DNA from: Rhodospirillales bacterium
GTDB taxonomy: Bacteria; Pseudomonadota; Alphaproteobacteria; Reyranellales; Reyranellaceae
Assembly (NCBI GenBank): GCA_016699855.1
Contig: CP064988.1
Coordinates: 1,496,988-1,528,987, forward strand
Length of the DNA: 32,000 bases
Reading direction: 5' to 3'
Part shown: positions 1 through 13,065 of the stretch, piece by piece
Layout: the number at the start of each line of letters is the position of its first letter
Position numbering within the stretch: the stretch's first letter is position 1
Notes under the pieces: generated by a model
The model's input: the letters and a program-made list of their open reading frames with translations, nothing else
Database searches by the model: none
What the model was told of the DNA's origin: nothing
Translations under genes and position numbers: made by a program

Positions 1-1284
1 CCGGAAGGATCGCTCGAAAAGCGCAATCACTGGGAGAAAACCAGTCACGCGCTGCTGGTCGGCGCGATCCTCCACGTCCTCTACGCTGAGGCCGACAAGA
101 CGCTAGCGGGCGTCGCCGCCTTCCTCTCCGATCCAAAGCGGCCGATCGAGTCGACGCTGGCCGCGATGATGAAGACCGCGCATCTCGGCGAAGCCGGTCC
201 GCATCCCGTCATCGCCAGCGCCGCGCGCGAGCTGCTCAACAAATCGGACAATGAGCGCAGCGGCGTGCTCTCGACGGCGATGTCGTTCCTCGGTCTTTAT
301 CGCGATCCCGTAGTCGCGGAAGTGACGCGGCGCTGCGACTGGCGCATCGCCGATATTGTCGGCGGCAAGCGGCCGTCGACGCTTTACCTCGTGGTGCCGC
401 CCTCGGACATCAATCGGACCAAGCCGCTGATACGCCTGATCCTCAATCAGGTCGGCCGGCGTCTCACCGAGGACTTGCAGGCGAAGGTCGGCCGGCACCG
501 GCTGCTTCTCATGCTGGACGAGTTTCCGGCGCTCGGCCGTCTCGACTTCTTCGAGTCCGCGCTGGCCTTCATGGCCGGCTACGGCCTCAAGAGCTTCCTG
601 ATCGCCCAGTCGCTCAACCAGATCGAAAAGGCCTACGGGCCGAATAACTCGATCCTCGACAACTGCCATGTCCGCGTCAGCTTCGCGACCAATGATGAGC
701 GGACGGCCAAGCGCGTCTCCGACGCGCTGGGCACCGCGACCGAGATGCGCGCGATGAAGAACTATGCCGGCCACCGGCTTTCGCCCTGGCTCGGCCACAT
801 GATGGTGTCGCGCTCGGAAACCGCCAGGCAATTGCTCACGCCCGGCGAGATCATGCAGCTTCCGCCGTCCGACGAGATCGTTATGGTCGCCGGCACGCCG
901 CCGATCCGGGCCAAGAAGGCGCGCTACTACGAGGACCGCCGGTTTCAGGAACGGGTGCTGCCGCCGCCCGCGGTCATCAAGCCGGATGAGGTTTCGTCTG
1001 ATGACTGGAGCCAACTGGCGTTGCCGCCGTCGCCGGAGGTCCTGCCAGCGGCGACGGGAGCCAATCCCGACGAGGAGGACACGACGGACTCCGAGCGCCG
1101 CCGCCAGCCCGAGCTGAGCCGAGTGCAGCCGATCGCCAAGGTGGCGCCGATCGAGAACGAGTTCGAGATCGACCCGGCGGACGACGCCGACGATGACGCC
1201 GCGCGTCTCAGCCGCATGAACCAGAACATGAGGCAGGTCGCGCGTCAGGCTTCGCTCGATCCCGGCGACGGCATCGAGCTGTAG
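1..1284 (+). CDS. traG: Conjugal transfer coupling protein TraG/VirD4 family, 5'-truncated by the window edge
   Basis: Frame 1 is open from nt 1 (PEGSLEKRNHWEKTSHALLVGAILHVLYAE...), so the listed M at 166 is internal. Contains LLMLDEFPALGRLDFFESALAFMAGYGLKSFLIAQSLNQIEKAYG (Walker-B-like DEF core of TraG/VirD4). The acidic C-terminal tail ends ...LDPGDGIEL, as in ICE TraG proteins. Confidence 0.9.
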   Translation, partial: PEGSLEKRNHWEKTSHALLVGAILHVLYAEADKTLAGVAAFLSDPKRPIESTLAAMMKTAHLGEAGPHPVIASAARELLNKSDNERSGVLSTAMSFLGLYRDPVVAEVTRRCDWRIADIVGGKRPSTLYLVVPPSDINRTKPLIRLILNQVGRRLTEDLQAKVGRHRLLLMLDEFPALGRLDFFESALAFMAGYGLKSFLIAQSLNQIEKAYGPNNSILDNCHVRVSFATNDERTAKRVSDALGTATEMRAMKNYAGHRLSPWLGHMMVSRSETARQLLTPGEIMQLPPSDEIVMVAGTPPIRAKKARYYEDRRFQERVLPPPAVIKPDEVSSDDWSQLALPPSPEVLPAATGANPDEEDTTDSERRRQPELSRVQPIAKVAPIENEFEIDPADDADDDAARLSRMNQNMRQVARQASLDPGDGIEL

Positions 1285-1294
1285 GAGGCCAGCG

Positions 1295-1726
1295 ATGACG
1301 AAATCGCCGAAGAAGCAGCGGCTCTCCGTCTATCTCGAGCCCGACGTCATGAAGGCCCTCTCAGCGTACGCCGCTCGGCGCGGCCACTCTCTGTCGCTCG
1401 TCGCCGAGGCCGGTATCGCGTCCTTACTTTCACCCGACGCGGCCGAGCGCCAGGAGGCGGTGATCACCAAGCGGCTCGACCAGCTCGACCGGCGCATGAC
1501 CCGCGTGGAGCGCGATGTCGGTATCTCGGTCGAAACGCTGGCGATCTTCGTCCGGTTCTGGCTCACCACGACGCCGGCCTTGCCTGAGCCCGCCGCTCAG
1601 GCCGCTCGCGCCAAGGCCGGCGAGCGGTACGAGGCGTGCATCGCAGCTTTGGGCCGTCGGCTCGCGAGCGGGCCGAAGCTCCGGCAGGAAATTTCGGAGG
1701 ACATCGGGCCTATGCGCGACGATTAG
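1295..1726 (+). CDS. Ribbon-helix-helix (CopG-family) protein typical of the traG-trbB interval of Trb-type ICEs
   Basis: N-terminus KKQRLSVYLEPDVMKALSAYAARRGHSLSLVAEAGI has the RHH beta-strand/helix pattern. It starts 11 nt after the traG stop, in the same orientation. Confidence 0.7.
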   Translation: MTKSPKKQRLSVYLEPDVMKALSAYAARRGHSLSLVAEAGIASLLSPDAAERQEAVITKRLDQLDRRMTRVERDVGISVETLAIFVRFWLTTTPALPEPAAQAARAKAGERYEACIAALGRRLASGPKLRQEISEDIGPMRDD

Positions 1727-1775
1727 GGGTCGCTGGCTGGGCACTGGATAGAGCCGCGGAACGTGTGCATCTCGC

Positions 1776-2652
1776 TCAACCTCCCGACAGGAGAATCACG
1801 CCGGCGACCAGTACCCCGCAGCCCGCGAACCGCCACGGCCCGACTTTCTCGCGCAGGATCACCATGCCCATGATCGCGCCGACCATCATCGACATTTCGC
1901 GCATGGGGGCGACCAGGCTGAGCGGTGCGCCCGACGTCAGTGCCGCCAGTACGAGAATGTAGGACAGAGGAGAGAGCAGTCCCACGCCGACCGCAATCCA
2001 CCAGTAGCCGCGCATGGCATCGATGGCGCGACGGGGGTTGGCGATCACGAGCGGCGCCAGAAGGAAGAACCGCAGCAGATTCGAGAACCAGTCCAGCACG
2101 ACCGGCGCGATTCCAAGTGCTTTGACGGCGTAGGCGTCAAAGCACCGTGTAGGATGCGATCAGGCCGCCCGTTGCGGTGCCCCAACGCACGCCCGATTGC
2201 CCGCCCGGACGCCGGAAGGCGGATAGATCGCCCTGGGTGGCGATAAGGCCGATCCCGACAACAACAAGGAGCAACCCTGCTAGCCCTTGCTCGGACGGCC
2301 GTTCTCCAAGGATCAGGAATGCGCCGAGCGTCGAGAGCATGGGGCCGGTGCCTCGGGCAACTGGATAGACTACCGACAGGTCAGCAACCTGATAACCGCG
2401 TTGCAGGCAGAGGCTATAGGCCAGATGAATGAGGCCGCTGAGCAGCAGGAAGACGATGCCGATCCATGACCAGTCAATGCCGTCGCCTTGTATGAGCAGG
2501 TAGAACACCCACGGCGCATAGGCGATGCAGGCGATCAGATTGTAGGCAAAAACGAAGATCGGGCCGACCGATGCGGCCCGTTTGGCGAGCAGATTCCAAC
2601 TTGCGTGAATGAGGGATGCAAGGACAACAAGCAGCAGCGAGGCGAACGCCAT
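1776..2652 (-). pseudogene. EamA/DMT-superfamily transporter, interrupted by a single-nucleotide frameshift near 2139-2145
   Basis: Two minus-strand ORFs (2652-2137, 171 aa; 2099-1776, 107 aa) are both highly hydrophobic. Together they give about 280 aa, the size of a two-repeat EamA protein. Frame A reads ...GGLIASYTVL-stop. Shifting one nt gives ...DAYAVKALGIAPVVLDWFSNLL..., which runs straight into the second ORF. AGGAGG lies 5 nt upstream of the ATG at 2652. Confidence 0.75.
2117..2145. repeat. Perfect 10-bp inverted repeat GTGCTTTGAC-N9-GTCAAAGCAC spanning the EamA frameshift and premature stop
   Basis: Read directly: 2117-2126 GTGCTTTGAC, 2136-2145 GTCAAAGCAC. The minus-strand TGA stop (2139-2137) lies inside the right arm. 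Confidence 0.9.
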
Positions 2653-2693
2653 CGAGACCTCCTAACGCGCCAACCGGCGCTGGTTGATCTCGA
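2652..2693 (-). promoter_or_regulatory. Possible expression platform: helix that sequesters the SD 3' end and the first nt of the start codon of the EamA gene
   Basis: RNA UCGAGAUC (2693-2686) can pair with GGUCUCGA (2659-2652): 8 bp with one G-U. The 3' strand covers the last two G of AGGAGG, the spacer and the A of AUG. An inner hairpin GCGCC-GGUU-GGCGC (2680-2667) is nested inside. Confidence 0.4.
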
Positions 2694-2696
2694 CTT

Positions 2697-2795
2697 CTCC
2701 GCCTCTGGGATTTTGCCCCTCGGGTGCAGCCGTGGAACTCCCACGGTTTCTGCAACGCTCGGTCCAGCGACGGATGTACCGTCCGGAACCCTAGT
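2697..2795 (-). promoter_or_regulatory. ykkC-class (guanidine-I-like) riboswitch aptamer in the 5' leader of the EamA gene; ligand subtype undetermined
   Basis: Minus strand reads A-CUAGGGUUCCGG-(GACGG UACAU CCGUC)-GCUGGACCGAGCG-UUGCAGAAA-(CCGUGG GAGUU CCACGG)-CUGCACCCGA-(GGGG CAAAA UCCC)-AGAGGCGGAG. The conserved blocks match the remembered ykkC-yxkD consensus in order, and the variable hairpins sit in the expected places. Confidence 0.7.
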
Positions 2796-2816
2796 TGCCA
2801 CTCGGTCGATGCGGCG

Positions 2817-2846
2817 ACTTTAGTTCATACTCGCGCCTGCAAGCAA
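2817..2846 (-). promoter_or_regulatory. Candidate sigma70-type promoter for the riboswitch-EamA transcript
   Basis: Minus strand TTGCTT (2846-2841), 18-nt spacer, TAAAGT (2822-2817). The predicted start is roughly 15-20 nt upstream of the aptamer. Weak match, read by eye only. Confidence 0.2.
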
Positions 2847-2949
2847 GCAGGTGAGGCATCAGTTCAGATGTCGTAACAGCACGACGGACGATCTTGTTGA
2901 TGCCGCGTTGTAGACCTGCGGCAAGGTGTACCGGCATTTGAGGTTAACT

Positions 2950-3396
2950 ATGCCTGCCCCATCTGCGCTTCGCATCCTGGTCATGACAGTCGCGTTCGTA
3001 CCGGCCCTGCTCAGCTGCAGGCCAGCAGAGGTGACTCCGGTTGCGGTTTCTCCGCTTGCCACACCGAATGTCGTCATGGCCGCCGATCCGCAGCCGCCAT
3101 TCACGTACTGGGCGCCTGAAAAATCGATAATCCGAAATCATCCGCGTCAGCCCGGTATCTGGATCGCGGAGTCCCCGGATGGCTCGCGCAAATATTATTA
3201 CGGCGACCAGTGCCGTGCGTCGGAATTCCAACGCTTCGTGGGTCAGAGCGTCGACGCGCTTCCGGAAAAGCCAGCCGATGCGACGTGGCGCCTGACTTGT
3301 TCGACATGCATGGTAACGTCCGACCTGGGTTGGAAGCGGATGAATGTTTCGTACGATCAGCAAACGAGAATGATCAACGACATCTCGTGCGGTTAG
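2950..3396 (+). CDS. Secreted lipoprotein with a C-terminal peptidase-inhibitor-I78-like domain
   Basis: GAGG lies 6 nt upstream of the ATG at 2950 (the track start at 2926 is a GTG further upstream). Signal peptide plus lipobox MPAPSALRILVMTVAFVPALLSC. The C-terminus CRASEFQRFVGQSVDALPEK...MVTSDLGWKRMNVSYDQQTRMINDISCG follows the I78 pattern C..a..q.lvGq ... vTmD....RlNv.yD....I..isCG as I remember it. Confidence 0.6.
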   Translation: MPAPSALRILVMTVAFVPALLSCRPAEVTPVAVSPLATPNVVMAADPQPPFTYWAPEKSIIRNHPRQPGIWIAESPDGSRKYYYGDQCRASEFQRFVGQSVDALPEKPADATWRLTCSTCMVTSDLGWKRMNVSYDQQTRMINDISCG

Positions 3397-3426
3397 CGCC
3401 AATACAATCGTCCTAGTATTCTGGCG
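3397..3426 (+). terminator. Weak candidate intrinsic terminator after the lipoprotein gene
   Basis: CGCCAATAC (3397-3405), 10-nt loop, GTATTCTGGCG (3416-3426), with a 2-nt bulge. Followed by a T-rich but interrupted tract (ttcccgccgtttccctgtctttgt). Confidence 0.25.
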
Positions 3427-3564
3427 TTCCCGCCGTTTCCCTGTCTTTGTACGCTACAGTACGACGACCACATTTCGGTTGTTGTAATGCCCTGAATTCT
3501 GCCTCTTCTACTCATCCCCGATCCAGGGCCGCTTTTCGCGGGCCCGCACGAGAACGGGGACGAC

Positions 3565-4548
3565 GTGGCGGCAACTCACCAGAAATCGGAGGCAATCCTT
3601 CGCGGCGCACGCATGCTGCGCACGGCCCTTGGGCCGGCGATCGCCCAATTTCTGGAAGATCCCGCGATCGTCGAGGTGATGCTCAACCCCGATGGGCGGC
3701 TCTGGGTCGACCGCCTGTCCGAGGGACTCTCCGACACGGGCGAACGGCTGTCGCCGGCCGACGGCGAACGCATCGTTCGCCTCGTCGCGCACCATGTCGG
3801 CGCCGAAGTTCATCCGGCCAGCCCCCGCGTCTCTGCCGAGTTGCCGGAAACGGGCGAGCGGTTCGAGGGGCTGCTTCCGCCGGTCGTCGCAGCTCCGGCC
3901 TTCGCGATCCGAAAGCCCGCCGTCGCCGTGTTCACGCTCGACGACTATGTATGGACCGGCGTGATGACCGCCAACCAGGCGGAGACGCTGCGGGTCGCCG
4001 TCGTCGAGCGCCGCAATATCCTAGTCGCCGGCGGCACCTCGACTGGAAAGACCACGCTCACCAACGCACTGCTCGCCGAGGTTTCAAAAACCTCCGATCG
4101 TGTGGTGCTGATCGAGGACACGCGCGAGCTCCAATGCGCCGCCCCGAACCTCGTCGCGATGCGGACGAAGGACGGCGTCGTCACGCTGTCCGATCTCGTC
4201 CGATCCTCGCTGCGCCTGCGCCCTGATCGCATCCCGATCGGCGAGGTGCGCGGCGCTGAAGCGCTCGATCTGCTCAAGGCCTGGGGCACCGGCCACCCCG
4301 GCGGCATCGGCACCATCCATGCGGGCACCGCCATCGGCGCGCTCCGCCGCCTCGAGCAGCTCATCCAGGAAGCTGTCGTCACGGTTCCCCGCGCCCTGAT
4401 CGCCGAGACGATCGATCTGGTCGCCGTGCTCTCAGGCCGCGGCGCCTCGCGCCGGCTCGCCGAACTCGCTCGCGTCGAAGGGCTCGGCCCCGACGGCGAC
4501 TACCGCGTCCTGCCCGCCAGCCAGCACCTCACAGGAGATCCGTCATGA
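3565..4548 (+). CDS. trbB: P-type conjugative transfer ATPase TrbB (VirB11 family)
   Basis: Walker [10 protein letters not shown]. Also has [41 protein letters not shown] and IHAGTA motifs. GTG start with GGGGA 4 nt upstream. Confidence 0.9.
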
Positions 4549-4877
4549 TCCAGCATGCCATGCGTATTCGCCGTCATATCGCGACGGCCGCCTCCGTCAC
4601 CTTCCTCACCCTGGCGCTCGCTCCCGCCGCCCACGCGTCGGGTTCATCGATGCCGTGGGAAGCGCCGCTGCAATCGATCCTTCAATCCATCGAGGGACCC
4701 GTCGCCAAGATCGTTGCGGTGATCATCATCATCGTGACTGGCCTCACGCTCGCCTTCGGCGACACCTCGGGCGGCTTCAGGCGCCTGATCCAGATTGTCT
4801 TCGGCCTGTCGATCGCCTTCGCCGCTTCCAGCTTCTTCCTGTCCTTCTTCTCGTTCGGCGGCGGAGCGCTAGTCTGA
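4545..4877 (+). CDS. trbC: Conjugative pilin precursor TrbC (VirB2 family)
   Basis: ATGA overlap with the trbB stop. Signal peptide ending ...APAAHASG, followed by two hydrophobic helices. Position between trbB and trbD. Confidence 0.85.
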   Translation: MIQHAMRIRRHIATAASVTFLTLALAPAAHASGSSMPWEAPLQSILQSIEGPVAKIVAVIIIIVTGLTLAFGDTSGGFRRLIQIVFGLSIAFAASSFFLSFFSFGGGALV

Positions 4878-5158
4878 TGACGACGTCGGCCGAGACGGCG
4901 AGCGAAGTGCCGGGCTTTTCGGTCCCCGTCCATCGCGCGCTGACCGAGCACATCCTGCTCGGCGGTGCGCCTCGCTCGATCGCCATCCTAAATGGGACGC
5001 TGGCGGCGGCGCTCGGGCTGGGCCTTCGCCTCTGGCTCGTTGGAATTGGCCTCTGGGCGATCGGTCACTTCGCCGCCGTCTGGGCCGCCAAACGCGATCC
5101 GCAGTTCGTCGACGTCGTGCGCAGGCATCTGCGCATCCCCGGCCATCTGTCGGTTTGA
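4877..5158 (+). CDS. trbD: Conjugal transfer protein TrbD (VirB3 family)
   Basis: ATG at 4877 overlaps the trbC TGA by 1 nt and is in frame with track ORF 4655-5158. MTTSAETASEVPGFSVPVHRALTEHILLGGAPR... is the usual TrbD N-terminus. 93 aa. Confidence 0.85.
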   Translation: MTTSAETASEVPGFSVPVHRALTEHILLGGAPRSIAILNGTLAAALGLGLRLWLVGIGLWAIGHFAAVWAAKRDPQFVDVVRRHLRIPGHLSV

Positions 5159-5174
5159 GGGGTGTGCCGCCGTG

Positions 5175-7610
5175 ATGAACCTTGCCGAATATCGCAACCG
5201 CAACGCCCGGCTCGCCGACTTCCTTCCCTGGGTCGCGCTGGTGGGCGAAGGCGTTGTCCTCAACAAGGACGGGAGCCTGCAACGCACCGCCCGATTTCGC
5301 GGCCCCGATCTCGACAGCGCCGTGCCGGCCGAGCTGATCGCCGTCGCCGGGCGGCTCAACAATGCCTTCCGCCGCCTCGGCTCCGGCTGGGCGATCTTCG
5401 TCGAGGCGCAGCGGCACGGCGCCGCCACCTATCCCGCCAGCATGTTCGCCGACAGCGCCTCCGCGCTGGTCGACGCCGAACGCAAGGCGGATTTCGAGGA
5501 AGCCGGCGCGCATTTCGAGTCGAGCTACTTCCTGACCTTCCTCTATCTGCCCCCAGCCGAAGATGCCGCCCGCGCCGAGACCTGGCTCTATGAGGGCCGC
5601 GACCACACCGGCGTCGACGCCCACGAAGTCCTGCGCGGCTTTGTCGATCGCACCGATCGCATCCTCCAGCTGATCGACGCCTTCATGCCGGAATGCGCCT
5701 GGCTCGATGACGCCGAGACGCTGACCTTCCTGCATTCGACGGTCTCGACGAAACGCCACCGCGTTCGCGTGCCCGAGACGCCGATCTATCTCGATGCACT
5801 GCTGGCCGATCAGCCGCTCACCGGCGGGCTCGAGCCGCGCCTTGGCGACACGCATCTCCGCATCCTTTCGATCGTTGGATTTCCGACCGCGACCACGCCC
5901 GGGATCCTCGACGAGTTGAATCGGCTCGCCTTTCCCTATCGCTGGTCGACCAGGGCCGTTCTCCTCGACAAGACCGACGCCACCAGGCTGCTGACCAAGA
6001 TCCGGCGGCAATGGTTCGCCAAGCGCAAGTCGATCGCGGCCATCCTGAAGGAGGTCATGACCAACGAGGCTTCGGCGCTGCTTGACACCGACGCCGCGAA
6101 CAAGGCGGCCGACGCAGACATGGCGTTGCAGGAGCTCGGCGCCGACTATGCTGGCCAAGCCTATGTCACCGCGACGATCACCGTCTGGGACGAGGATCCG
6201 CGCATCGCCGCAGAGAAGCTGCGCCTCGTCGAGAAGGTCATCCAGGGCCGCGACTTCACCGCCATGCCCGAGACCATCAACGCCGTCGACGCCTGGCTCG
6301 GCAGCCTGCCCGGCCACGCCTATGCCAATGTCCGGCAGCCGCCCATCAACACGCTCAATCTCGCCCACATGATCCCGCTGTCGGCGGTATGGGCGGGACC
6401 GGAACGGGACGAGCACTTCGCAGCACCCCCACTGCTGTTCGGCAAGACCGAAGGCTCGACCCCGTTCCGGCTTTCCATCCACGTCGGCGACGTCGGTCAC
6501 ACGCTGATCGTCGGACCGACCGGCGCCGGCAAGTCCGTGCTGCTGGCGCTTATGGCGCTGCAGTTTCGGCGCTACGAGCGGTCTCAGGTCTTCGCCTTCG
6601 ATTTCGGTGGGTCGATCCGGGCTGTGGCGCTCGCCATGCGCGGCGATTGGCACGACCTCGGCGGCGGACTCACCGAAGGCGCCGATGACAGCGTGTCGCT
6701 TCAGCCGCTTGCCCGGATCGACGATGTCGCGGAACGCGCCTGGGCGGCTGACTGGCTCACCGCCATGCTGGGACACGAGAGTGTGGCGATCACGCCCGAG
6801 GTGAAGGAGCATCTCTGGTCGGCGCTTTCGTCGCTCGCCTCCGCACCGATCGGCGAGCGCACACTGACGGGACTGTCGGTCCTGCTGCAGTCCAACGATC
6901 TCAAGCAGGCGCTTCGGCCCTACTGCGTTGGCGGTCCCTACGGGCGCCTGCTCGACGCCGAAGCCGAACATTTGGGCGAAGCCTCAGTGCAGGCATTCGA
7001 GACCGAGGGTCTCATCGGAACGGGCGCCGCCGCCGCGGTCCTGGCCTATCTCTTCCATCGCATCGAGGACCGCCTCGACGGGCGGCCGACGCTGCTGATC
7101 GTCGATGAAGGCTGGCTCGCCCTTGATGACGAGGGCTTCGCGGGTCAGCTTCGCGAATGGCTGAAGACGCTACGCAAGAAGAACGCCAGCGTCATCTTCG
7201 CCACCCAGTCGCTCTCTGACATCGATGGCTCGGCGATCGCGCCCGCCATTATCGAGAGCTGCCAGACCCGTATCCTGCTGCCGAACGAACGCGCGATCGA
7301 GCCGCAGATCACCGCGATCTATCGCCGCTTCGGGTTGAACGACCGCCAGATCGAGATTCTCGCCCGGGCGATTCCCAAGCGCGACTATTACTGCCAGTCG
7401 CGCAGCGGCAATCGCTTGTTTGAGCTCGGCCTGTCGGATGTGGCGCTCGCCCTCTGCGCAACGTCCTCAAAGACCGATCAGGCTGCGATCGCGCAGACGA
7501 TCGCAGCGCACGGGCGCGAGGACTTCCTGGCGGCCCGGCTGCGCCAGCGCGGCCTCGGCTGGGCCGCCGATCTCATCCCCAACCTCAACAACATGGAGAC
7601 GTCCTCATGA
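5175..7610 (+). CDS. trbE: Conjugal transfer ATPase TrbE (VirB4 family)
   Basis: In-frame ATG at 5175 (or GTG at 5172), 17 nt after the trbD stop: MNLAEYRNRNARLADFLPWVALV... Walker A GPTGAGKS, Walker B LLIVDEGW. About 811 aa. The track start at 4992 would overlap trbD. Confidence 0.92.
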   Translation: MNLAEYRNRNARLADFLPWVALVGEGVVLNKDGSLQRTARFRGPDLDSAVPAELIAVAGRLNNAFRRLGSGWAIFVEAQRHGAATYPASMFADSASALVDAERKADFEEAGAHFESSYFLTFLYLPPAEDAARAETWLYEGRDHTGVDAHEVLRGFVDRTDRILQLIDAFMPECAWLDDAETLTFLHSTVSTKRHRVRVPETPIYLDALLADQPLTGGLEPRLGDTHLRILSIVGFPTATTPGILDELNRLAFPYRWSTRAVLLDKTDATRLLTKIRRQWFAKRKSIAAILKEVMTNEASALLDTDAANKAADADMALQELGADYAGQAYVTATITVWDEDPRIAAEKLRLVEKVIQGRDFTAMPETINAVDAWLGSLPGHAYANVRQPPINTLNLAHMIPLSAVWAGPERDEHFAAPPLLFGKTEGSTPFRLSIHVGDVGHTLIVGPTGAGKSVLLALMALQFRRYERSQVFAFDFGGSIRAVALAMRGDWHDLGGGLTEGADDSVSLQPLARIDDVAERAWAADWLTAMLGHESVAITPEVKEHLWSALSSLASAPIGERTLTGLSVLLQSNDLKQALRPYCVGGPYGRLLDAEAEHLGEASVQAFETEGLIGTGAAAAVLAYLFHRIEDRLDGRPTLLIVDEGWLALDDEGFAGQLREWLKTLRKKNASVIFATQSLSDIDGSAIAPAIIESCQTRILLPNERAIEPQITAIYRRFGLNDRQIEILARAIPKRDYYCQSRSGNRLFELGLSDVALALCATSSKTDQAAIAQTIAAHGREDFLAARLRQRGLGWAADLIPNLNNMETSS

Positions 7611-8374
7611 ACCCGCGCCGTTCGCGCGGCGTGCGCCTTGCCGCCGCGCTGCTCACCGCTTCCACCGCATTGTCACCAATCTTCTGGGCGCCACCAGCGG
7701 CGGCGCAGTTGATCGTGAAGGATCCCACGAACTACGTGCAGAACGTGCTTCAGGCGGCCAGATCGCTGGAGCAGATCAACAACCAGATCAGTTCGCTTCA
7801 GAACGAGGCGACAATGCTCATCAACCAAGCTCGTAATCTCGCGAGCCTGCCGTACTCCTCGATCCAACAACTCCAGCAGTCCGTGCAACGCACCCAGCAG
7901 CTGCTGCAGCAGGCGCAGCGCATCGCCTACGATGTCCAAAACATCGATCAGGCGTTCCAGACCACCTACGGCAGCGCCTCGATTTCCGCATCCGATCAGG
8001 CGCTCGTGGCGCAGGCGCGAGAGCGCTGGCAGAACACCGTCGGCGGGCTGCAGGACGCCATGCGCGTGCAGGCCGGTGTCGTCGGCAACATCGACACCAA
8101 CCGGTCTGAGATGTCCTCTTTGATCGGCCGCAGCCAGGGAGCGACGGGCGCGCTGCAGGCGACGCAGGCCGGCAACCAGCTCCTTGCGCTTCAGGCGCAA
8201 CAACTCGCCGATCTCACCGCTGTCGTCGCCGCCAACGGTCGCGCACAGGCGCTCTCGGAGGCGGAGCGCGCAGCGGCCGCCGAGCAGGGCCGTGAGCAGC
8301 GCCGCCGCTTCCTCACGCCGGGTTCCGGCTACCAGGCGGGCAACGCCCGTATGTTCCCCAACAGCGGCAACTGA
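7607..8374 (+). CDS. trbJ: P-type conjugative transfer protein TrbJ (VirB5-like)
   Basis: ATGA overlap with trbE. Signal peptide (…APPAAAQ), then a Q/L-rich coiled-coil region. Position between trbE and trbL. Confidence 0.85.
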   Translation: MNPRRSRGVRLAAALLTASTALSPIFWAPPAAAQLIVKDPTNYVQNVLQAARSLEQINNQISSLQNEATMLINQARNLASLPYSSIQQLQQSVQRTQQLLQQAQRIAYDVQNIDQAFQTTYGSASISASDQALVAQARERWQNTVGGLQDAMRVQAGVVGNIDTNRSEMSSLIGRSQGATGALQATQAGNQLLALQAQQLADLTAVVAANGRAQALSEAERAAAAEQGREQRRRFLTPGSGYQAGNARMFPNSGN

Positions 8375-8384
8375 GGGCGTGGCA

Positions 8385-8747
8385 ATGGACGGCAAGATGC
8401 TCGCCCGACTTGGCGCGGTGGTGTTCGTCGCGGTGGCCGTCACCGCGACGGCGATCGAGTTAAGTCGGGATGAGGAGCCGGCGGAGAGCTGGGCTTCGTC
8501 ACGATCGAACACGGCCCCGTCCGACCCCTTGCGCGACGAGTTGTTCCGCTGCCAGGCTCTCGGCGAAGCCGGGCCCCGCGACGCGGCCTGCCTGCGCGCC
8601 TGGTCGGAAAACCGCCACCGCTTCCTCGCGCCGGGCGCTCGACCGGCAGAGCGGCTGCCGGAAGCGGCGCCGGCTCCCCATCCGCCAGCGGACCCGGCCA
8701 TGCCGACCCCTCCGGCGCCGGTGTCGCCGCCGGTCGAGACTCGGTAA
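8385..8747 (+). CDS. Putative entry-exclusion protein, TrbK-alt type
   Basis: GAGGG lies 7 nt upstream of the ATG at 8385, in frame with track ORF 8184-8747. N-terminal TM LARLGAVVFVAVAVTATAI. The motif LRDELFRCQALGEAGPRDAACLRAWSENRHRFL matches the remembered TrbK-alt signature. Located between trbJ and trbL. Confidence 0.6.
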   Translation: MDGKMLARLGAVVFVAVAVTATAIELSRDEEPAESWASSRSNTAPSDPLRDELFRCQALGEAGPRDAACLRAWSENRHRFLAPGARPAERLPEAAPAPHPPADPAMPTPPAPVSPPVETR

Positions 8748-8751
8748 CGTC

Positions 8752-10113
8752 ATGGGCAATACCGGCGTCATCGACCACTTCCTCGAAGTCTTCACCCGCT
8801 ACATCGATTCCGGCTTTGGCCTGCTGAGCGGCGAAGTCGCGTTCATCGCCACGACCCTGATCGTGATCGATGTGACGCTCGCGGCGTTGTTCTGGTCCTG
8901 GGGCGCGGACGACGACATCCTGGCGCGCCTGGTGAAGAAGACCCTCTTCGTCGGCGTGTTCGCCTACATCATCGGCAACTGGAACAACCTCGCGCGCATC
9001 GTCTTCGAGAGCTTCGCCGGCCTGGGCCTCAAGGCCAGCGGCACGGGCTTCACGACAGCCGATCTGCTGCGGCCCGGCAAGGTGGCGCAGACCGGCCTCG
9101 ACGCCGGACGGCCGCTCCTGGAGTCGATCTCTGGCCTGATGGGCTACTGGTCGTTCTTCGAGAACTTCATCCAGATCGCCTGCATGTTCCTGGCCTGGGC
9201 GCTGGTGTTGCTCGCCTTCTTCATCCTCGCCATCCAGCTCTTCGTCACCCTGATCGAATTCAAGCTCACCACGCTCGCCGGCTTCGTCCTCATTCCGTTC
9301 GGCCTGTTCGGCAAGTCCGCGTTCATGGCAGAACGGGTGCTCGGCAACGTCATCTCCTCAGGCATCAAGGTGTTGGTGCTGGCCGTTATCATCGGCATCG
9401 GCTCGACGCTGTTCTCCGAATTCACCGCTGGCTTTGGCGGCGCGACCCCATCCATCGACGAAGCCATGGCCATCGTGCTCGCCGCGCTGTCGCTCCTCGG
9501 CCTCGGCATCTTCGGTCCGGGCATCGCCAGCGGCATCGTCTCTGGCGGCCCGCAGCTCAGCGCCGGCGCGGCGGTGGGTACAGGCCTCGCCGCCGGCGGC
9601 ATGATCGCCGCCGGAGCCGGCGCGGTCGGCGCGGTTGCCTCCGGTGGCGCGGCGCTTGCCGGAGGCGCGGCAGCCGCGGCCCGGGGCGGCGCGGCGATGG
9701 CGGGCGGCGCATCCACGGCCTATAGCCTCGGCGCAGCCGGCCAGTCAGGCGCTAGTGGCGTCGCGTCAGGTCTCGGCGGTGTTGCTCGGGCCGGAGGCAG
9801 CGGCGCTGTCTCACCGCTCCGCCGCGCCGCCTCACGCGCCGCCGAGAGCATGCGCTCCAGCTTCAACGCCGGCGGCAAGGCTGCGTTCGAAGCCACTGGC
9901 GGCTCCTCGACGATGGGATCGGTCGGTGGCGACGCAGCGGGCGACGGCAGCGGCTCGGCCGCACCGGCAACCGGCAGACCGCCCGCATGGGCGCAGCGCA
10001 TGCGCCGCTCCCAACGCATGACCCACGCCGTCCAGGCGACAGCCCACGCCGTGCGCTCCGGTGATGCCCATGGCGGCGGCTCTTCCGTCAATCTCTCCGA
10101 AAGCGACCGCTGA
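8752..10113 (+). CDS. trbL: P-type conjugative transfer protein TrbL (VirB6 family)
   Basis: ATG at 8752, 4 nt after the preceding stop: MGNTGVIDHFLEVFTRYIDSGFGLLSGEV... Multiple TM helices, then a long Gly/Ala/Ser-rich tail. The track ORF start at 8470 overlaps trbK-alt. Confidence 0.9.
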   Translation: MGNTGVIDHFLEVFTRYIDSGFGLLSGEVAFIATTLIVIDVTLAALFWSWGADDDILARLVKKTLFVGVFAYIIGNWNNLARIVFESFAGLGLKASGTGFTTADLLRPGKVAQTGLDAGRPLLESISGLMGYWSFFENFIQIACMFLAWALVLLAFFILAIQLFVTLIEFKLTTLAGFVLIPFGLFGKSAFMAERVLGNVISSGIKVLVLAVIIGIGSTLFSEFTAGFGGATPSIDEAMAIVLAALSLLGLGIFGPGIASGIVSGGPQLSAGAAVGTGLAAGGMIAAGAGAVGAVASGGAALAGGAAAAARGGAAMAGGASTAYSLGAAGQSGASGVASGLGGVARAGGSGAVSPLRRAASRAAESMRSSFNAGGKAAFEATGGSSTMGSVGGDAAGDGSGSAAPATGRPPAWAQRMRRSQRMTHAVQATAHAVRSGDAHGGGSSVNLSESDR

Positions 10114-10796
10114 TGTTCAAACGACCCTCCACCCACTATGGCAAAGCCCCCGAACCTGAGACCCCCTATCAGCGCGCCGCCCAGGTCTGGGACGAACGGA
10201 TTGGCTCGTCACGGGTCCAGGCGAAGAACTGGCGGCTGATGGCCTTCGGTTCGCTGATCCTCTCCGCCGGCTTCGCCGCCGCGCTGGTCTGGCAATCGGC
10301 GCGCGGCACGATCGTGCCCTGGGTGGTGCAGGTCGACCGGCTCGGCCAGGCGCAGGCAGTGGCGCCGGCTGTTGCCGACTATCGCCCGACCGACCCCCAA
10401 ATCGCCTTCCACCTGGCACGATTCATCGAGCAGGTCCGCTCGATCCCGGCCGACGCCATCATCGTGCGGCAGAACTGGCTGCGCGCCTACGACTTCACGA
10501 CTGATCGCGGCGCGGCAGCGCTCAACGATTATGCGCGGGCCAACGACCCGTTCACCAAGGTCGGCCGCCAGCAGATCGCCGTCGAGGTCTCCAGCGTTAT
10601 CCGCGCGTCCCCCGACAGCTTCCGCGTGGCCTGGGTCGAGCGCCGCTACGAGAACGGCCAGCTCGCCACGACCGAACGCTGGACCGCGATCCTGACGATC
10701 GTCGTGCAGGTCCCGCGGAACGCCGATCGGCTCAGAGCGAACCCGCTCGGCATCTACGTCAACGCCATCAACTGGTCACGGGAGCTTGGGCAATGA
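10113..10796 (+). CDS. trbF: Conjugal transfer protein TrbF (VirB8-like)
   Basis: TGATG overlap with trbL. Single N-terminal TM (WRLMAFGSLILSAGFAAALVW) and a periplasmic domain, with ...FRVAWVERRYENGQ... typical of TrbF. Confidence 0.88.
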   Translation: MFKRPSTHYGKAPEPETPYQRAAQVWDERIGSSRVQAKNWRLMAFGSLILSAGFAAALVWQSARGTIVPWVVQVDRLGQAQAVAPAVADYRPTDPQIAFHLARFIEQVRSIPADAIIVRQNWLRAYDFTTDRGAAALNDYARANDPFTKVGRQQIAVEVSSVIRASPDSFRVAWVERRYENGQLATTERWTAILTIVVQVPRNADRLRANPLGIYVNAINWSRELGQ

Positions 10797-11842
10797 AGCC
10801 GTATTTCCGTAAAGCCGGAAACCCGGCTTCACACATTCTCGTATTTCCGGCTCTGCGCCGAGGCGCATTGCCGACCCTCCTGCTGGCCACCTCCGCACTT
10901 GCCGGCTGCGCCACCAGCACTCCGCCTCCGGAAATTTCCTACGACGCCGCTGCTCCGGCCGTGCAGACCGTCGATCCGCCGGCGCCCGTCACCGTCGTCG
11001 AGATCCCGCGACCGCTTCCGTTGCCTGGACAGATGCAGCGCGTCGAACCCTCTCGAACCACACCGGAGCCGACCGATCCGACCGCCCGGGTCAACCAGGC
11101 CAACGCCGCTGCGCGCATGCAGCCGATGCGCAACGGCTTCATCAACTCAATGCAGGTCTACCCATTCACGCAAGGCGCGCTCTATCAGGTTTACACCGCC
11201 GTCGGGCAGATCACCGACATCGCGTTGCAGCCGGGCGAGCAGCTCGTCGGTTCGGGCCCGGTCGCCGCTGGCGACACGGTGCGCTGGATCATCGGCGACA
11301 CGCAGAGCGGCGCCGGGCCCACCTTGCAGGTCCATATCCTCGTCAAACCCACTCGGCCCGACCTGATGACCAATCTCGTCATCAACACCAACTTGCGCAC
11401 CTACCATATGGAGCTTCGCTCTACCGAGCGGACCTACATGGCCTCGGTCTCCTGGCAATATCCGCAGGATCAGCTCATCGCGCTGCGTCGCCAGAACCAA
11501 CAGGCCGAAGCCGCGCAGCCGGTCGCATCCGGCGTCGATCTCGCCAATGTCAACTTCCGCTACGCGATCGATGGCGACCGCGCGCCGTGGCGGCCACTGC
11601 GCGCCTTCGACGACGGCCGCCAGGTCTTCATCGAATTCCCGCGCGGCATCGGCCAGGGAGAGATGCCGCCGCTGTTCGTGGTCGGTCCCGAGGGTAACAC
11701 CTCGGAACTGGTGAACTACCGGGTTCGCGGCCATCACATGATCGTCGATAGGCTCTTCGCCGCCGCCGAGTTGCGGTATGGCTCTGGCGATCGCCAGAAG
11801 CGCGTCCGCATCGTGCGTACCGATGGGAGGCCAGCGTCGTGA
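10793..11842 (+). CDS. trbG: P-type conjugative transfer protein TrbG (VirB9 family), lipoprotein
   Basis: ATGA overlap with trbF. Lipobox SALAGC. Has VYPFTQGALYQVYTAVGQITDIALQPGE and VNFRYAIDGDRAPWRPLRAFDDGRQVFIEFP motifs. Confidence 0.88.
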   Translation: MKPYFRKAGNPASHILVFPALRRGALPTLLLATSALAGCATSTPPPEISYDAAAPAVQTVDPPAPVTVVEIPRPLPLPGQMQRVEPSRTTPEPTDPTARVNQANAAARMQPMRNGFINSMQVYPFTQGALYQVYTAVGQITDIALQPGEQLVGSGPVAAGDTVRWIIGDTQSGAGPTLQVHILVKPTRPDLMTNLVINTNLRTYHMELRSTERTYMASVSWQYPQDQLIALRRQNQQAEAAQPVASGVDLANVNFRYAIDGDRAPWRPLRAFDDGRQVFIEFPRGIGQGEMPPLFVVGPEGNTSELVNYRVRGHHMIVDRLFAAAELRYGSGDRQKRVRIVRTDGRPAS

Positions 11843-13065
11843 GCGAGACGGATCCCCGGAAAGAGGAAGGTCCGGACGAGGAGGCACGGCCGTTGATCAG
11901 CGCGCCCGTCGGTCCCGCGCCGATGCGGCTGCGCGCCGAACCGCCGCGCGTCACCCGACTGTCGCGAAAGGTGCTGGCCGGTCTCGGCCTGGTCGCGAGC
12001 GTCGGGATTGGCGGGGCGCTAATCTATGCCCTTCAGACCCGCGACGGCGGTCGGCCGAACGAGGAACTCTACTCGACCGATAACCGCTCGACGGCCGATG
12101 GCATCGCGGGCCTGCCACGCGACTATAGCGGCGTACCTCAGCTAGGCCCGCCGCTTCCGGGCGACCTCGGACGCCCAATTCTCGGAGCCCAGAACCGCGG
12201 CCAGCCCGTACCGACGCCCGGCGTAGCCCCGCCCAACCCCGGCCTCAGTCCGGAAGAGCAACGGCGCATTCAGGAGCTTGAATCCGCACGCACGGCGCGC
12301 TTGTTCGCCGGCACCGAGACCCGCACTGCCAATCCGGCGCCCACGCCGCCGGCCGCTGCTGCGGTCCCGCCCATCCCGGATCTCACCGGTCTCGGTCTGG
12401 CGCCGCCGCCGGCGACGCCTACGGCCCAGGATCGCCAGAACGCCTTTCTCAACGCAGCCGCTGACCGCCGCACCGTTGCGCCCGATCGCGTCTCCGCTCC
12501 GGCTTCGCCCAACATCCTGCAGGCTGGCGCCATCATCCCGGCCGCGCTGATTACCGGTATCCGCTCCGATCTTCCTGGCCAGATCACCGCACAGGTCACC
12601 GAAAACATCTACGACAGCCCGACGGGTCGCATCCTCCTCGTGCCCCAAGGCACGCGCGTCATTGGCCAGTACGATAACAACGTCCAGTTCGGACAAAACC
12701 GCGTGCTGCTCGCCTGGAACCGGCTGATCTTCCCGAGCGGACGGTCGATCGTACTGGAGCGTCAGCCCGGCGCCGACGCCGAGGGCTATGCCGGCCTCCA
12801 GGACGGCGTCGATTATCACTGGTGGGAGCTCGCCAAGGCGGCGGGGCTCTCAACGCTGCTCAGCATCGGTTCGGAGCTGGCGGTCGATGATGAGGACCGG
12901 CTGCTCCGCGCCATCCGCGACGGCGGTCAGGACACCTTCAATCAGGCGGGACAGGAGATCGTCCGCCGACAACTCAACATCCCCCCGACGCTGACAATCC
13001 GTCCGGGCTTCCCAGTCAGGGTCATCGTCACGCGCGACATGATCCTCGAACCCTACGGAGGCTGA
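11839..13065 (+). CDS. trbI: Conjugal transfer protein TrbI (VirB10 family)
   Basis: GTGA overlap with trbG. N-terminal TM, Pro-rich linker, and C-terminal domain ...GTRVIGQYDNNVQFGQNRVLLAWNRLIFPSGRSIVL...GYAGLQDGVDYHWWE. Confidence 0.88.
   Translation: MSETDPRKEEGPDEEARPLISAPVGPAPMRLRAEPPRVTRLSRKVLAGLGLVASVGIGGALIYALQTRDGGRPNEELYSTDNRSTADGIAGLPRDYSGVPQLGPPLPGDLGRPILGAQNRGQPVPTPGVAPPNPGLSPEEQRRIQELESARTARLFAGTETRTANPAPTPPAAAAVPPIPDLTGLGLAPPPATPTAQDRQNAFLNAAADRRTVAPDRVSAPASPNILQAGAIIPAALITGIRSDLPGQITAQVTENIYDSPTGRILLVPQGTRVIGQYDNNVQFGQNRVLLAWNRLIFPSGRSIVLERQPGADAEGYAGLQDGVDYHWWELAKAAGLSTLLSIGSELAVDDEDRLLRAIRDGGQDTFNQAGQEIVRRQLNIPPTLTIRPGFPVRVIVTRDMILEPYGG

Follow-up and report, generated by a model that had tools for sequence, protein, structure and literature searches.

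A candidate ykkC subtype 2d riboswitch with a re-modelled pocket in the leader of an EamA transporter gene of a Rhodospirillales bacterium

Introduction

The stretch of DNA analysed here, called the window, comprises 32,000 nucleotides of contig CP064988.1 of a Rhodospirillales bacterium. On its minus strand lies a structured RNA (2809–2690, or 2809–2650 with its expression platform) in the leader of a gene for an EamA-type transporter of the drug/metabolite transporter (DMT) superfamily. Judged by its marker bases and gene association, this RNA very probably belongs to the orphan riboswitch candidates of ykkC subtype 2d: it has the fold common to the guanidine-I, PRPP (phosphoribosyl pyrophosphate) and ppGpp (guanosine tetraphosphate) riboswitches, a re-modelled pocket and a stand-alone DMT/EamA transporter gene under its apparent control, for which an ON mechanism is proposed below. 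A first-pass annotation, made from the letters of the sequence, had read the element as a guanidine-I aptamer, and this reading is not supported, as the match to the guanidine-I family scores below threshold and bases that contact guanidine are changed.

The ykkC variants that do not recognise guanidine are defined as subtype 2 (PMC6031431). Sherlock et al. sorted these RNAs by their downstream gene into 2a, which senses ppGpp, 2b, which senses PRPP, 2c, which was later assigned to ADP/CDP, and 2d, the subtype most like guanidine-I (PMC5912903). The 2d RNAs are found upstream of EamA (phn_DUF6) and TauE/SafE transporter genes and are orphans (PMC5912903, PMC7266159); papers from 2020, 2021 and 2023 still treat them as such and as lacking a structure (2021: PMC8457001). 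No later ligand assignment for 2d was found in the literature searched. The subtype 2d candidate is reportedly the work of Nelson in 2017 and of Sherlock in 2018 and 2019.

Results

Rfam match and extent of the RNA

Region 2550–2950 was compared with all 4227 families of Rfam 15 using a permissive cmscan. Here, the guanidine-I family RF00442 (ykkC-yxkD) matched 2701–2805 of the minus strand over the full length of the model (positions 1–107 of 107), with 47.0 bits and an E value of 1.8e-7. The sole other match at E ≤ 10 was noise (IS1222_FSE, E = 1.6). The ykkC resemblance is real and far beyond chance. The 5' two-thirds of the RNA follows the RF00442 consensus almost base for base, and CUAGGGUUCCGG, which had been claimed as an exact 12-mer of the motif, is identical to the Rfam consensus in the cmscan alignment.

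The score of 47.0 bits falls short, however, of the 63 bits set as the RF00442 gathering score, and with gathering thresholds no Rfam 15 family matched anywhere in the window. The first-pass annotation had itself named the lack of a hit above threshold as the result that would speak against its guanidine-I reading, and no such hit exists in the window. The shortfall is not peculiar to this copy, as none of 20 window-like homologues reaches the RF00442 threshold and, in gathering-threshold scans of 38 further loci (18 + 20), no EamA-linked RNA reaches that of any family. Thus, for the window and the scanned loci, Rfam 15 has no model that captures the EamA-linked RNAs at threshold.

The minus strand from 2795 to 2697 reads as it had been transcribed, one junction slip apart: the G of CUAGGGUUCCG-G had been assigned both to the 12-mer and to the hairpin strand GACGG, and the real sequence is ...UUCCGGACGGUACAUCCGUCG..., the remainder being correct. 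The element does lie where it had been placed, at 2653–2797, but is larger than that, with conservation from about 2810 to the start codon; as had been pointed out, the track of open reading frames (ORFs) cannot show it. In a megablast of 1700–3000 against plasmids, DNA conservation sets in at about 2810–2814, the 5' edge of the RNA, and in Thioclava DNA-level conservation is limited to an RNA-sized piece ahead of a transporter of 57% identity. An alignment of eight leaders extends the conserved region past the Rfam model on both flanks. The 5' flank contains conserved AUCGACCGAGUGGCAA, while the 3' flank reads GAGGMGGAGAnGUCGAGAUCAACC, followed by a variable hairpin and then by GG-GGUCUC-AUG, which is invariant in all eight despite their diverged proteins.

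Homologous RNAs and their association with one transporter gene

Homologous RNAs were collected, from one genome per species, with the pattern CTAGGGTTCCGN{8,38}CCGAGCGN{15,45}CACCC, and downstream transporter homologues were identified by tblastn. The scan returned at least 120 loci over many phyla. Among the matches listed, 75 RNAs form a window-like group (group A), and 72 of these lie directly upstream of a transporter homologue of 52–94% identity; two of the other three run out of sequence and one is disrupted. A second group (group B, mostly marine Rhodobacterales) has 19 RNAs among the matches listed, 18 of them with the transporter (32–40% identity). In addition, 16 other RNAs among these matches have a P3-like element, and 11 of them are followed by the transporter (28–47% identity, with one A-like outlier, L113, at 84%).

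Matches without the transporter include leaders of a natA-type ABC ATPase gene and of ilvE, both of which are known ppGpp riboswitch associations. They also include the leader upstream of xpt in Brevibacillus sp. TJ4 (L085:2718–2904), in which a purine riboswitch (RF00167, 82.9 bits) and a ykkC aptamer (RF00442, 65.6 bits) stand in tandem and which is the published guanine–PRPP two-input gate. Since the natA, ilvE and xpt leaders are matched as well, the combination of GAGCG and CACCC marks subtype 2 in general, and the 2d RNAs would be the EamA-linked set. As a separate observation, the xpt leader shows that the Rfam guanidine-I model also captures PRPP aptamers.

To control for bias, 80 metagenomic loci were collected via the protein alone and were searched with a covariance model built from an alignment of 104 distinct leaders. 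The RNA was directly upstream of the gene in 25 of the 80. The C of (G/A)AGCG is kept in all 25 of these gene-anchored RNAs, a sample that was not selected on that base, and the 22 strong matches have CACCC or CACCU, that is, C or U at the position equivalent to G67 of the guanidine-I aptamer from D. dadantii. Where upstream sequence is available for homologues of at least 55% identity, the RNA is present in 18 and missing in eight (about 70% with it), some of the eight lying behind another gene. The RNA precedes only seven of about 52 distant homologues (37–49% identity). Being common in close homologues and rare in distant ones, the RNA is an optional regulatory add-on of one transporter subfamily.

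Several loci are of interest in their own right. Group B RNAs (L018–L116; for example L020:412–542 and L031:1974–2102) have 2-nt linkers, a terminal helix (P0) that can reach 9 bp, and a GC hairpin that is sometimes followed by UUUU and is then terminator-like; this group could be a separate class. At L023:7022–7081, L024:4782–4842 and L105 (Kitasatospora), a 5' ykkC-like half with CUAGGGUUCCG…CCGAGCG…ACACCC is followed by conserved GCACCGAUACGCGUAUCUGAUGAUCCGUCGA, which is not P3-like, upstream of an ORF resembling cyclic-nucleotide-binding proteins. Rfam also reports the antisense RNA Sernc350 at L023:7231–7736. Finally, a metagenomic contig has a TPP riboswitch (RF00059, 84.5 bits; L134:366–469, minus strand) about 1 kb from the RNA–transporter module, which is probably coincidental.

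Fold, covariation and the additional helix P0

The structure was examined in a plain MAFFT alignment of the 104 distinct leaders, which was fitted to no structure. With the helices P0-P1-P1a-P1b-P2-P3, 92.7% of cells are paired, compared with 25–46% when the partners are slid by 1–3 columns. The covariation score is 0.363 against 0.146 for shuffled alignments, none of 500 shuffles reaches it, and 22 of the 29 pairs have changes on both sides. The ykkC fold with the pairings first proposed is borne out by the full-length model alignment and by covariation in P1, P1b, P2 and P3. The window RNA has all the parts of that fold: P1-P1a-P1b, P2, P3, the CUAGGGUUCCG and CCGAG cores and the A-rich P3 loop.

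From 5' to 3' on the minus strand, the RNA begins with the P0 5' strand UCGAC (2809–2805), which pairs with the P0 3' strand GUCGA (2694–2690). The pairs are U2809-A2690, C2808-G2691, G2807-C2692, A2806-U2693 and C2805-G2694; all five are compensated and 92.5% of cells are paired. The covariation can be seen by eye in homologous strand pairs such as UCAACC/GGUUGA, UCCAU/AUGGA, CCAUCUAU/AUAGAUGG and CCGACC/GGUCGG. Between P0 and P1 lies the linker CGAGUG (2804–2799), a near-invariant nGAGUG in the window-like group. This is followed by the P1 5' strand GGCAAC with the ykkC core CUAGGGUUCCGG (2798–2783), P1 being 99.6% paired with four of five pairs covarying, and by the P1b hairpin CCGGACGG-UACAU-CCGUCGCUGG (2786–2764), whose upper five pairs all covary and whose lower three are conserved. 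Next are GACCGAGCG and the P1 3' strand (2764–2752), and the P2 hairpin CCGUGG-GAGUU-CCACGG (2746–2730), with six of six pairs compensated and 92.3% of cells paired. P3 and the pocket region, CACCCGAGGGGCAAAAUCCCAGAGG (2726–2702), lie within the cmscan match and contain the A-rich loop, the S-turn G (2705) and two covarying purines (2721 and 2704). The purine-rich linker CGGAGAA (2701–2695) joins P3 to P0; it reads MGGAGAn in the window-like group and is absent or 2 nt long in group B.

A helix just like P0 is found in the PRPP and ppGpp aptamers, where it is made by the two ends of the RNA, stacks on P3, enlarges the pocket and joins the expression platform; guanidine-I RNAs have no P0 (PMC6031431). 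The helix is 5 bp long in the window and is compensated at every pair across the family.

Pocket positions and the guanidine-I question

The RNA departs from the RF00442 consensus in three places, namely GAGAG to GAGCG, CACGGag to CACCCGA and CCcGGGAG to CCCAGAGG. In the D. dadantii aptamer the changed blocks hold A38, G67, G84 and G85. The crystal structure of that aptamer places A38, with G37, in an AG bulge and makes G67 the cation–π floor of the pocket, the mutation G67A costing about 200-fold in affinity. G84 is the flipped-out S-turn G that pairs with C64, while the Hoogsteen edge of G85 faces the guanidinium, and neither G84A nor G85A leaves measurable guanidine binding (PMC5340920). 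In the window the equivalents of three of these bases differ: A38 is C (2757), G67 is C (2722–2723) and G85 is A (2704). The equivalent of G84 is retained (G2705) and is invariant in 104 of 104 sequences. Thus, the blocks that had been matched to the ykkC motif are present in the right order, but they include positions that depart from guanidine-I.

The same changes are those that set subtype 2 apart. Pyrimidines at the G67 and A38 positions mark subtype 2 ykkC RNAs (PMC5340920), and the adenine of the A38 position is replaced by a pyrimidine in every reported subtype 2 RNA (PMC8457001). The window has C at both.

The distance from C2726 to G2705 is 21 nt, which is the C75–G96 spacing of the PRPP aptamer (PMC6031431). 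This equality places a 1-nt insertion in the 5' strand of P3 and keeps the S-turn G; the cmscan alignment, which deletes the S-turn G, was rejected because it does not accommodate this spacing. Under the preferred alignment, G68·G85, which forms a wall of the guanidine pocket in D. dadantii, corresponds to G2721 and A2704. Over the 104 sequences these two positions are G/A in 60, A/G in 35, A/A in seven and C/A in two, and never G/G; both the G/A and the A/G states occur in each sub-group. This non-Watson-Crick covariation suggests a direct purine–purine contact unlike that of guanidine-I, and an isosteric purine pair, G·A or A·G, may serve to read out the pocket wall.

It is thus very improbable that the element is a functional guanidine-I riboswitch that switches on a guanidinium exporter, as first annotated. 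RF00442 is the best and sole meaningful Rfam match, and the gene belongs to the DMT superfamily, with weak similarity to the small multidrug resistance (SMR) proteins EbrB, MdtJ and MdtI (E of about 1e-3 to 1e-4). Yet the entire window-like group scores below threshold, the contact positions are altered (A38 to C, G67 to C and G68·G85 to G·A or A·G) where mutations of G67, G84 and G85 cripple guanidine binding in D. dadantii (PMC5340920), and subtype 2 RNAs are non-guanidine by definition (PMC6031431). In addition, P0 and the conserved tails, which guanidine-I can dispense with, are present here.

The likeness to PRPP-type aptamers raises another reading, in which the RNA senses a known subtype 2 ligand (PRPP, ppGpp/pppGpp or ADP/CDP) and ties expression of the transporter to the status of nucleotides or of the stringent response. 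The motif CACCCGAGGG...AAAAGCCCAGAGG and P0 are common to the window RNA and the PRPP-type aptamer of the xpt leader, the S-turn G equivalent to PRPP G96 is invariant at the same 21-nt spacing, and the search pattern recovered natA-, ilvE- and xpt-linked RNAs as well. This reading is nevertheless unlikely. The gene association is different and very tight: it involves a single transporter gene, and genes for purines, branched-chain amino acids or NUDIX proteins are missing from its surroundings. The linkers that flank P0 are CGAGUG and MGGAGAn here as opposed to GA and GACAGG in the xpt leader, and the linkers of PRPP aptamers help to form the enlarged pocket. Furthermore, the literature keeps 2d separate, as an orphan, after the ligands of 2a–2c were identified.

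Expression platform and proposed mechanism

The Shine–Dalgarno (SD) sequence AGGAGG (2663–2658), the spacer UCUCG and the AUG (2652–2650) stand as first described, with 45 nt between 2697 and the start codon, which itself is 38 nt past the P0 3' strand. In this leader, GUCGAGAUC (2694–2686) can pair with GGUCUCGAU (2659–2651) over 9 bp at −13.6 kcal/mol. GUCGAGAUC starts with the five bases of the P0 3' strand, GUCGA, while its partner runs from the final two G of the SD across the spacer and into the start codon, of which it includes the AU. P0 and this alternative helix are mutually exclusive. The alternative helix is present in the minimum free energy (MFE) fold of the free leader, as is the hairpin that it encloses, GCGCC-GGUU-GGCGC (2680–2667), which varies in sequence and length among homologues and is absent in two of them (L076 and L094).

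In 67 distinct window-like leaders the duplex energy averages −9.4 kcal/mol, compared with −4.9 ± 2.3 kcal/mol for shuffled strands. The majority form of the helix is GAGAUC·GGUCUC. Two variants, GAGACC/GGUCUC and GAGAUC/GAUCUC, turn a wobble into a Watson-Crick pair, and two others, CGAGUC/GACUCG and UCGAG/CUCGA, shift the register. As these natural variants keep the pairing, they fit a real alternative helix. There is no terminator-like site between the aptamer and the AUG. A GC-rich hairpin with a U-rich tract, terminator-like in appearance, was noted at 2557–2580 (minus strand), about 70–95 nt inside the transporter coding sequence; it may be due to chance or be an intragenic attenuator.

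Since P0 excludes the occluding helix and there is no terminator, the simplest model is a translational ON switch, and the element is most likely such a switch for an efflux protein. The mRNA would start just upstream of 2809. When ligand is absent, GUCGAGAUC would pair with GGUCUCGAU and bury the spacer together with some of the SD and the AU of the AUG, so that translation is off. A ligand bound in a pocket to which P3, the AG-bulge region and the P0/P3 junction all contribute would stabilise P0 (2809–2805 with 2694–2690). The stabilised P0 would then take GUCGA from the occluding helix and free the ribosome-binding site, so that the transporter is made and, presumably, exports the ligand. 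This model agrees with the control of an efflux protein and with the polarity of the characterised classes, as the ykkC subtypes with known ligands are ON switches (PMC6031431).

In the leaders of group B and of the other RNAs, P0 is strong (−6 to −20 kcal/mol) and its 3' strand again takes part in an alternative stem.

Regarding transcription, the eight-leader alignment has a semi-conserved CTAnnnT box about 8 nt before conservation of the RNA sets in. Promoters of alphaproteobacteria have the consensus CTTGAC-N17-CTATAT. In the window, CTTGCT (2847–2842) is a tentative −35 box 18 nt upstream of CTAAAG (2823–2818), a tentative −10 box, and CTTGCT-N18-CTAAAG (2818–2847, minus strand) may be a promoter of the alphaproteobacterial sigma-70 type, which it resembles. 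An E. coli-type scan found no promoter.

The transporter gene and its disruption

That the RNA lies in the 5' leader of an EamA/DMT transporter gene, as had been claimed, is confirmed by Pfam EamA matches downstream and by the homologues. Two ORFs follow on the same strand (2652–2137 and 2099–1776), both with Pfam EamA matches and both with TIGR03340 (phn_DUF6) as best NCBIfam match, at profile positions 2–161 and 201–280. They are the halves of one gene (1776–2652, minus strand), whose frames join at ...IASYTV|FDAYAVK.... The window has ACGGTGCTTTGAC where six close homologues have ACGGT-CGTCGAC, revealing a window-specific 1-nt insertion at about 2143 that creates a TGA at 2139–2137 and cuts the product after 171 amino acids. 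The site is not a homopolymer, and the insertion may reflect either a real pseudogene or an assembly error.

The repaired protein has 291 amino acids and matches hundreds of 291-residue DMT/EamA proteins over their full length, with identities reaching 94%. TIGR03340 also aligns end to end: the repaired protein scores 117.9 bits, the version of group B 100.7 bits and that of Burkholderiales 120 bits. These scores are below the equivalog cutoff of 288, so that the transporter is a phn_DUF6 relative and not an equivalog. No relative of solved structure was found by sequence.

The frameshift raises the possibility, which deserves some weight though less than even, that the element is in this genome a decaying relic without current function. 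The module is cargo in a conjugative element, and elsewhere the RNA is kept beside a truncated or disrupted transporter (L002:4001–4257, L006:3001–4026 and L089), so that the module appears to decay repeatedly. On the other side, the RNA in the window fits the family consensus at every conserved position with all helices kept, and the insertion could be an assembly error. The question bears on present function in one genome and not on the identity of the element as a 2d candidate. With the gene frameshifted, the switch may currently control a broken gene.

Genomic setting

Positions 1–12000 of the window are a P-type Trb conjugative-transfer region, with TraG, a CopG-like gene, trbB, trbE, trbJ, trbL and other trb genes. 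The gap between the CopG-like gene and trbB is 1.84 kb in the window and about 260 nt in Sphingobium pCHQ1, and in Paracoccus pFER4 it holds a different gene. In the window it contains the RNA–transporter module, on the opposite strand, and a small divergent ORF. As the content of the gap varies among replicons, the module is cargo at a variable site. The divergent ORF in the same inserted segment (2926–3396, plus strand) encodes 156 amino acids with an N-terminus like that of a signal peptide or lipobox (…LLSCRP…).

The neighbours of the module differ in every replicon examined. It is present on only 16 of 72,556 plasmids, eight of the 16 being conjugative Agrobacterium plasmids, several labelled pTi, and it is not mainly plasmid-borne. 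No recurrent neighbour gene was found in 99 loci, where just generic SDR and LysR genes occur at a few. As there is neither a recurring neighbour nor a solved relative of the transporter, genomic context gives no clue to the ligand.

Discussion

The element shares with ykkC subtype 2d the fold, a pyrimidine at the A38 equivalent, an altered pocket and an EamA gene (formerly phn_DUF6) directly downstream, whose best NCBIfam match is TIGR03340. With guanidine-I (RF00442) it has in common P1/P1a/P1b/P2/P3, the cores CUAGGGUUCCGG and GNCCGAG, an A-rich loop in P3, the S-turn G and the association with efflux proteins. It differs from that class by the 1-nt insertion in the 5' strand of P3, by the extra P0 and by the conserved tails. 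Its platform is predicted to be translational, whereas the D. dadantii guanidine-I example uses a terminator (PMC5340920).

The PRPP (2b) and ppGpp (2a) aptamers have in common with the window RNA a P0 in which the 5' and 3' ends pair and which serves in the platform, a P3 of the CACCC...CCCAGAGG type and the ON logic, which is proposed here. The S-turn G is kept as in the PRPP aptamer, whereas ppGpp aptamers have no G there. In contrast to both, the gene is a lone transporter; neither the genes of purine biosynthesis or salvage that go with 2b nor the branched-chain amino acid, glutamate synthase and natA genes that go with 2a recur nearby in the 99 loci, and the linkers at the P0 junction differ in sequence and length. 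As to the gene product, the SMR/Gdx guanidinium exporters are likewise small DMT-superfamily efflux proteins encoded as single-gene, riboswitch-gated modules (the gating being a candidate here), but they are proteins with four transmembrane segments, unlike the ten-segment, EamA-type, TIGR03340-related protein of the window.

Several points weigh against the assignment and the switch as proposed. The 2d identity is argued from gene association and the subtype 2 marker bases rather than from a published 2d consensus. The scan pattern fixes GAGCG and CACCC, so that their invariance in that sample is no evidence. P0 and the alternative helix are almost invariant inside the subgroup of the window, and the covariation of P0 comes mostly from other subgroups. 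What speaks for the alternative helix is a few wobble-to-Watson-Crick or register variants and the energy controls, and the helix is weak (−3.1 kcal/mol) in L034 and L088. Finally, the SD-occlusion model is confined to the window-like leaders, as the platforms of group B and of the other leaders differ, with an occluded partner that is not consistently the SD and with some that look terminator-like.

The window-like RNAs may, with odds somewhat better than even, constitute a riboswitch class whose ligand no RNA is yet known to sense. Their scaffold would be nearer to the enlarged, P0-bearing pocket of the PRPP type than to the small guanidine pocket, and such a pocket would point to a ligand bigger than guanidinium and perhaps anionic or bridged by a metal. 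The EamA-linked set may also comprise two or more architectural classes. Group A, with its long conserved linkers, and group B, with linkers of 2 nt, could differ in ligand. It is very improbable that the conserved leader is instead bound by a protein or acts as a small RNA and is no small-molecule sensor. No ligand has been found since the 2018 split of subtype 2 into 2a–2d, which would fit such a role. Against it, the RNA keeps the complete tertiary-contact core of a fold that serves four validated classes as a small-molecule aptamer, the search of neighbouring genes turned up no co-occurring protein gene, and the RNA varies mostly at pocket positions, as a riboswitch variant would be expected to do.

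For this genome the element is ordinary. It is one more copy of the known orphan subtype 2d, a widespread module carried as cargo and followed by a frameshifted gene. For the family, the ykkC scaffold is a textbook case of one RNA fold re-tuned for guanidine, ppGpp, PRPP and ADP/CDP, and in that set only subtype 2d still has neither a ligand nor a structure. The correct label prevents the guanidine-sensor annotation that a permissive Rfam match would prompt. The analysis also provides handles for de-orphanising 2d: a minimal construct must contain P0 (2809–2690), a translational reporter is simple to design, the purine–purine covariation of the pocket is diagnostic, and the substrate of the transporter should be the ligand or a close relative of it. 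If the window-like RNAs do constitute a new ligand class, the RNA and its EamA exporter would form a self-contained, ligand-inducible efflux cassette that sometimes travels on conjugative plasmids and integrative and conjugative elements.

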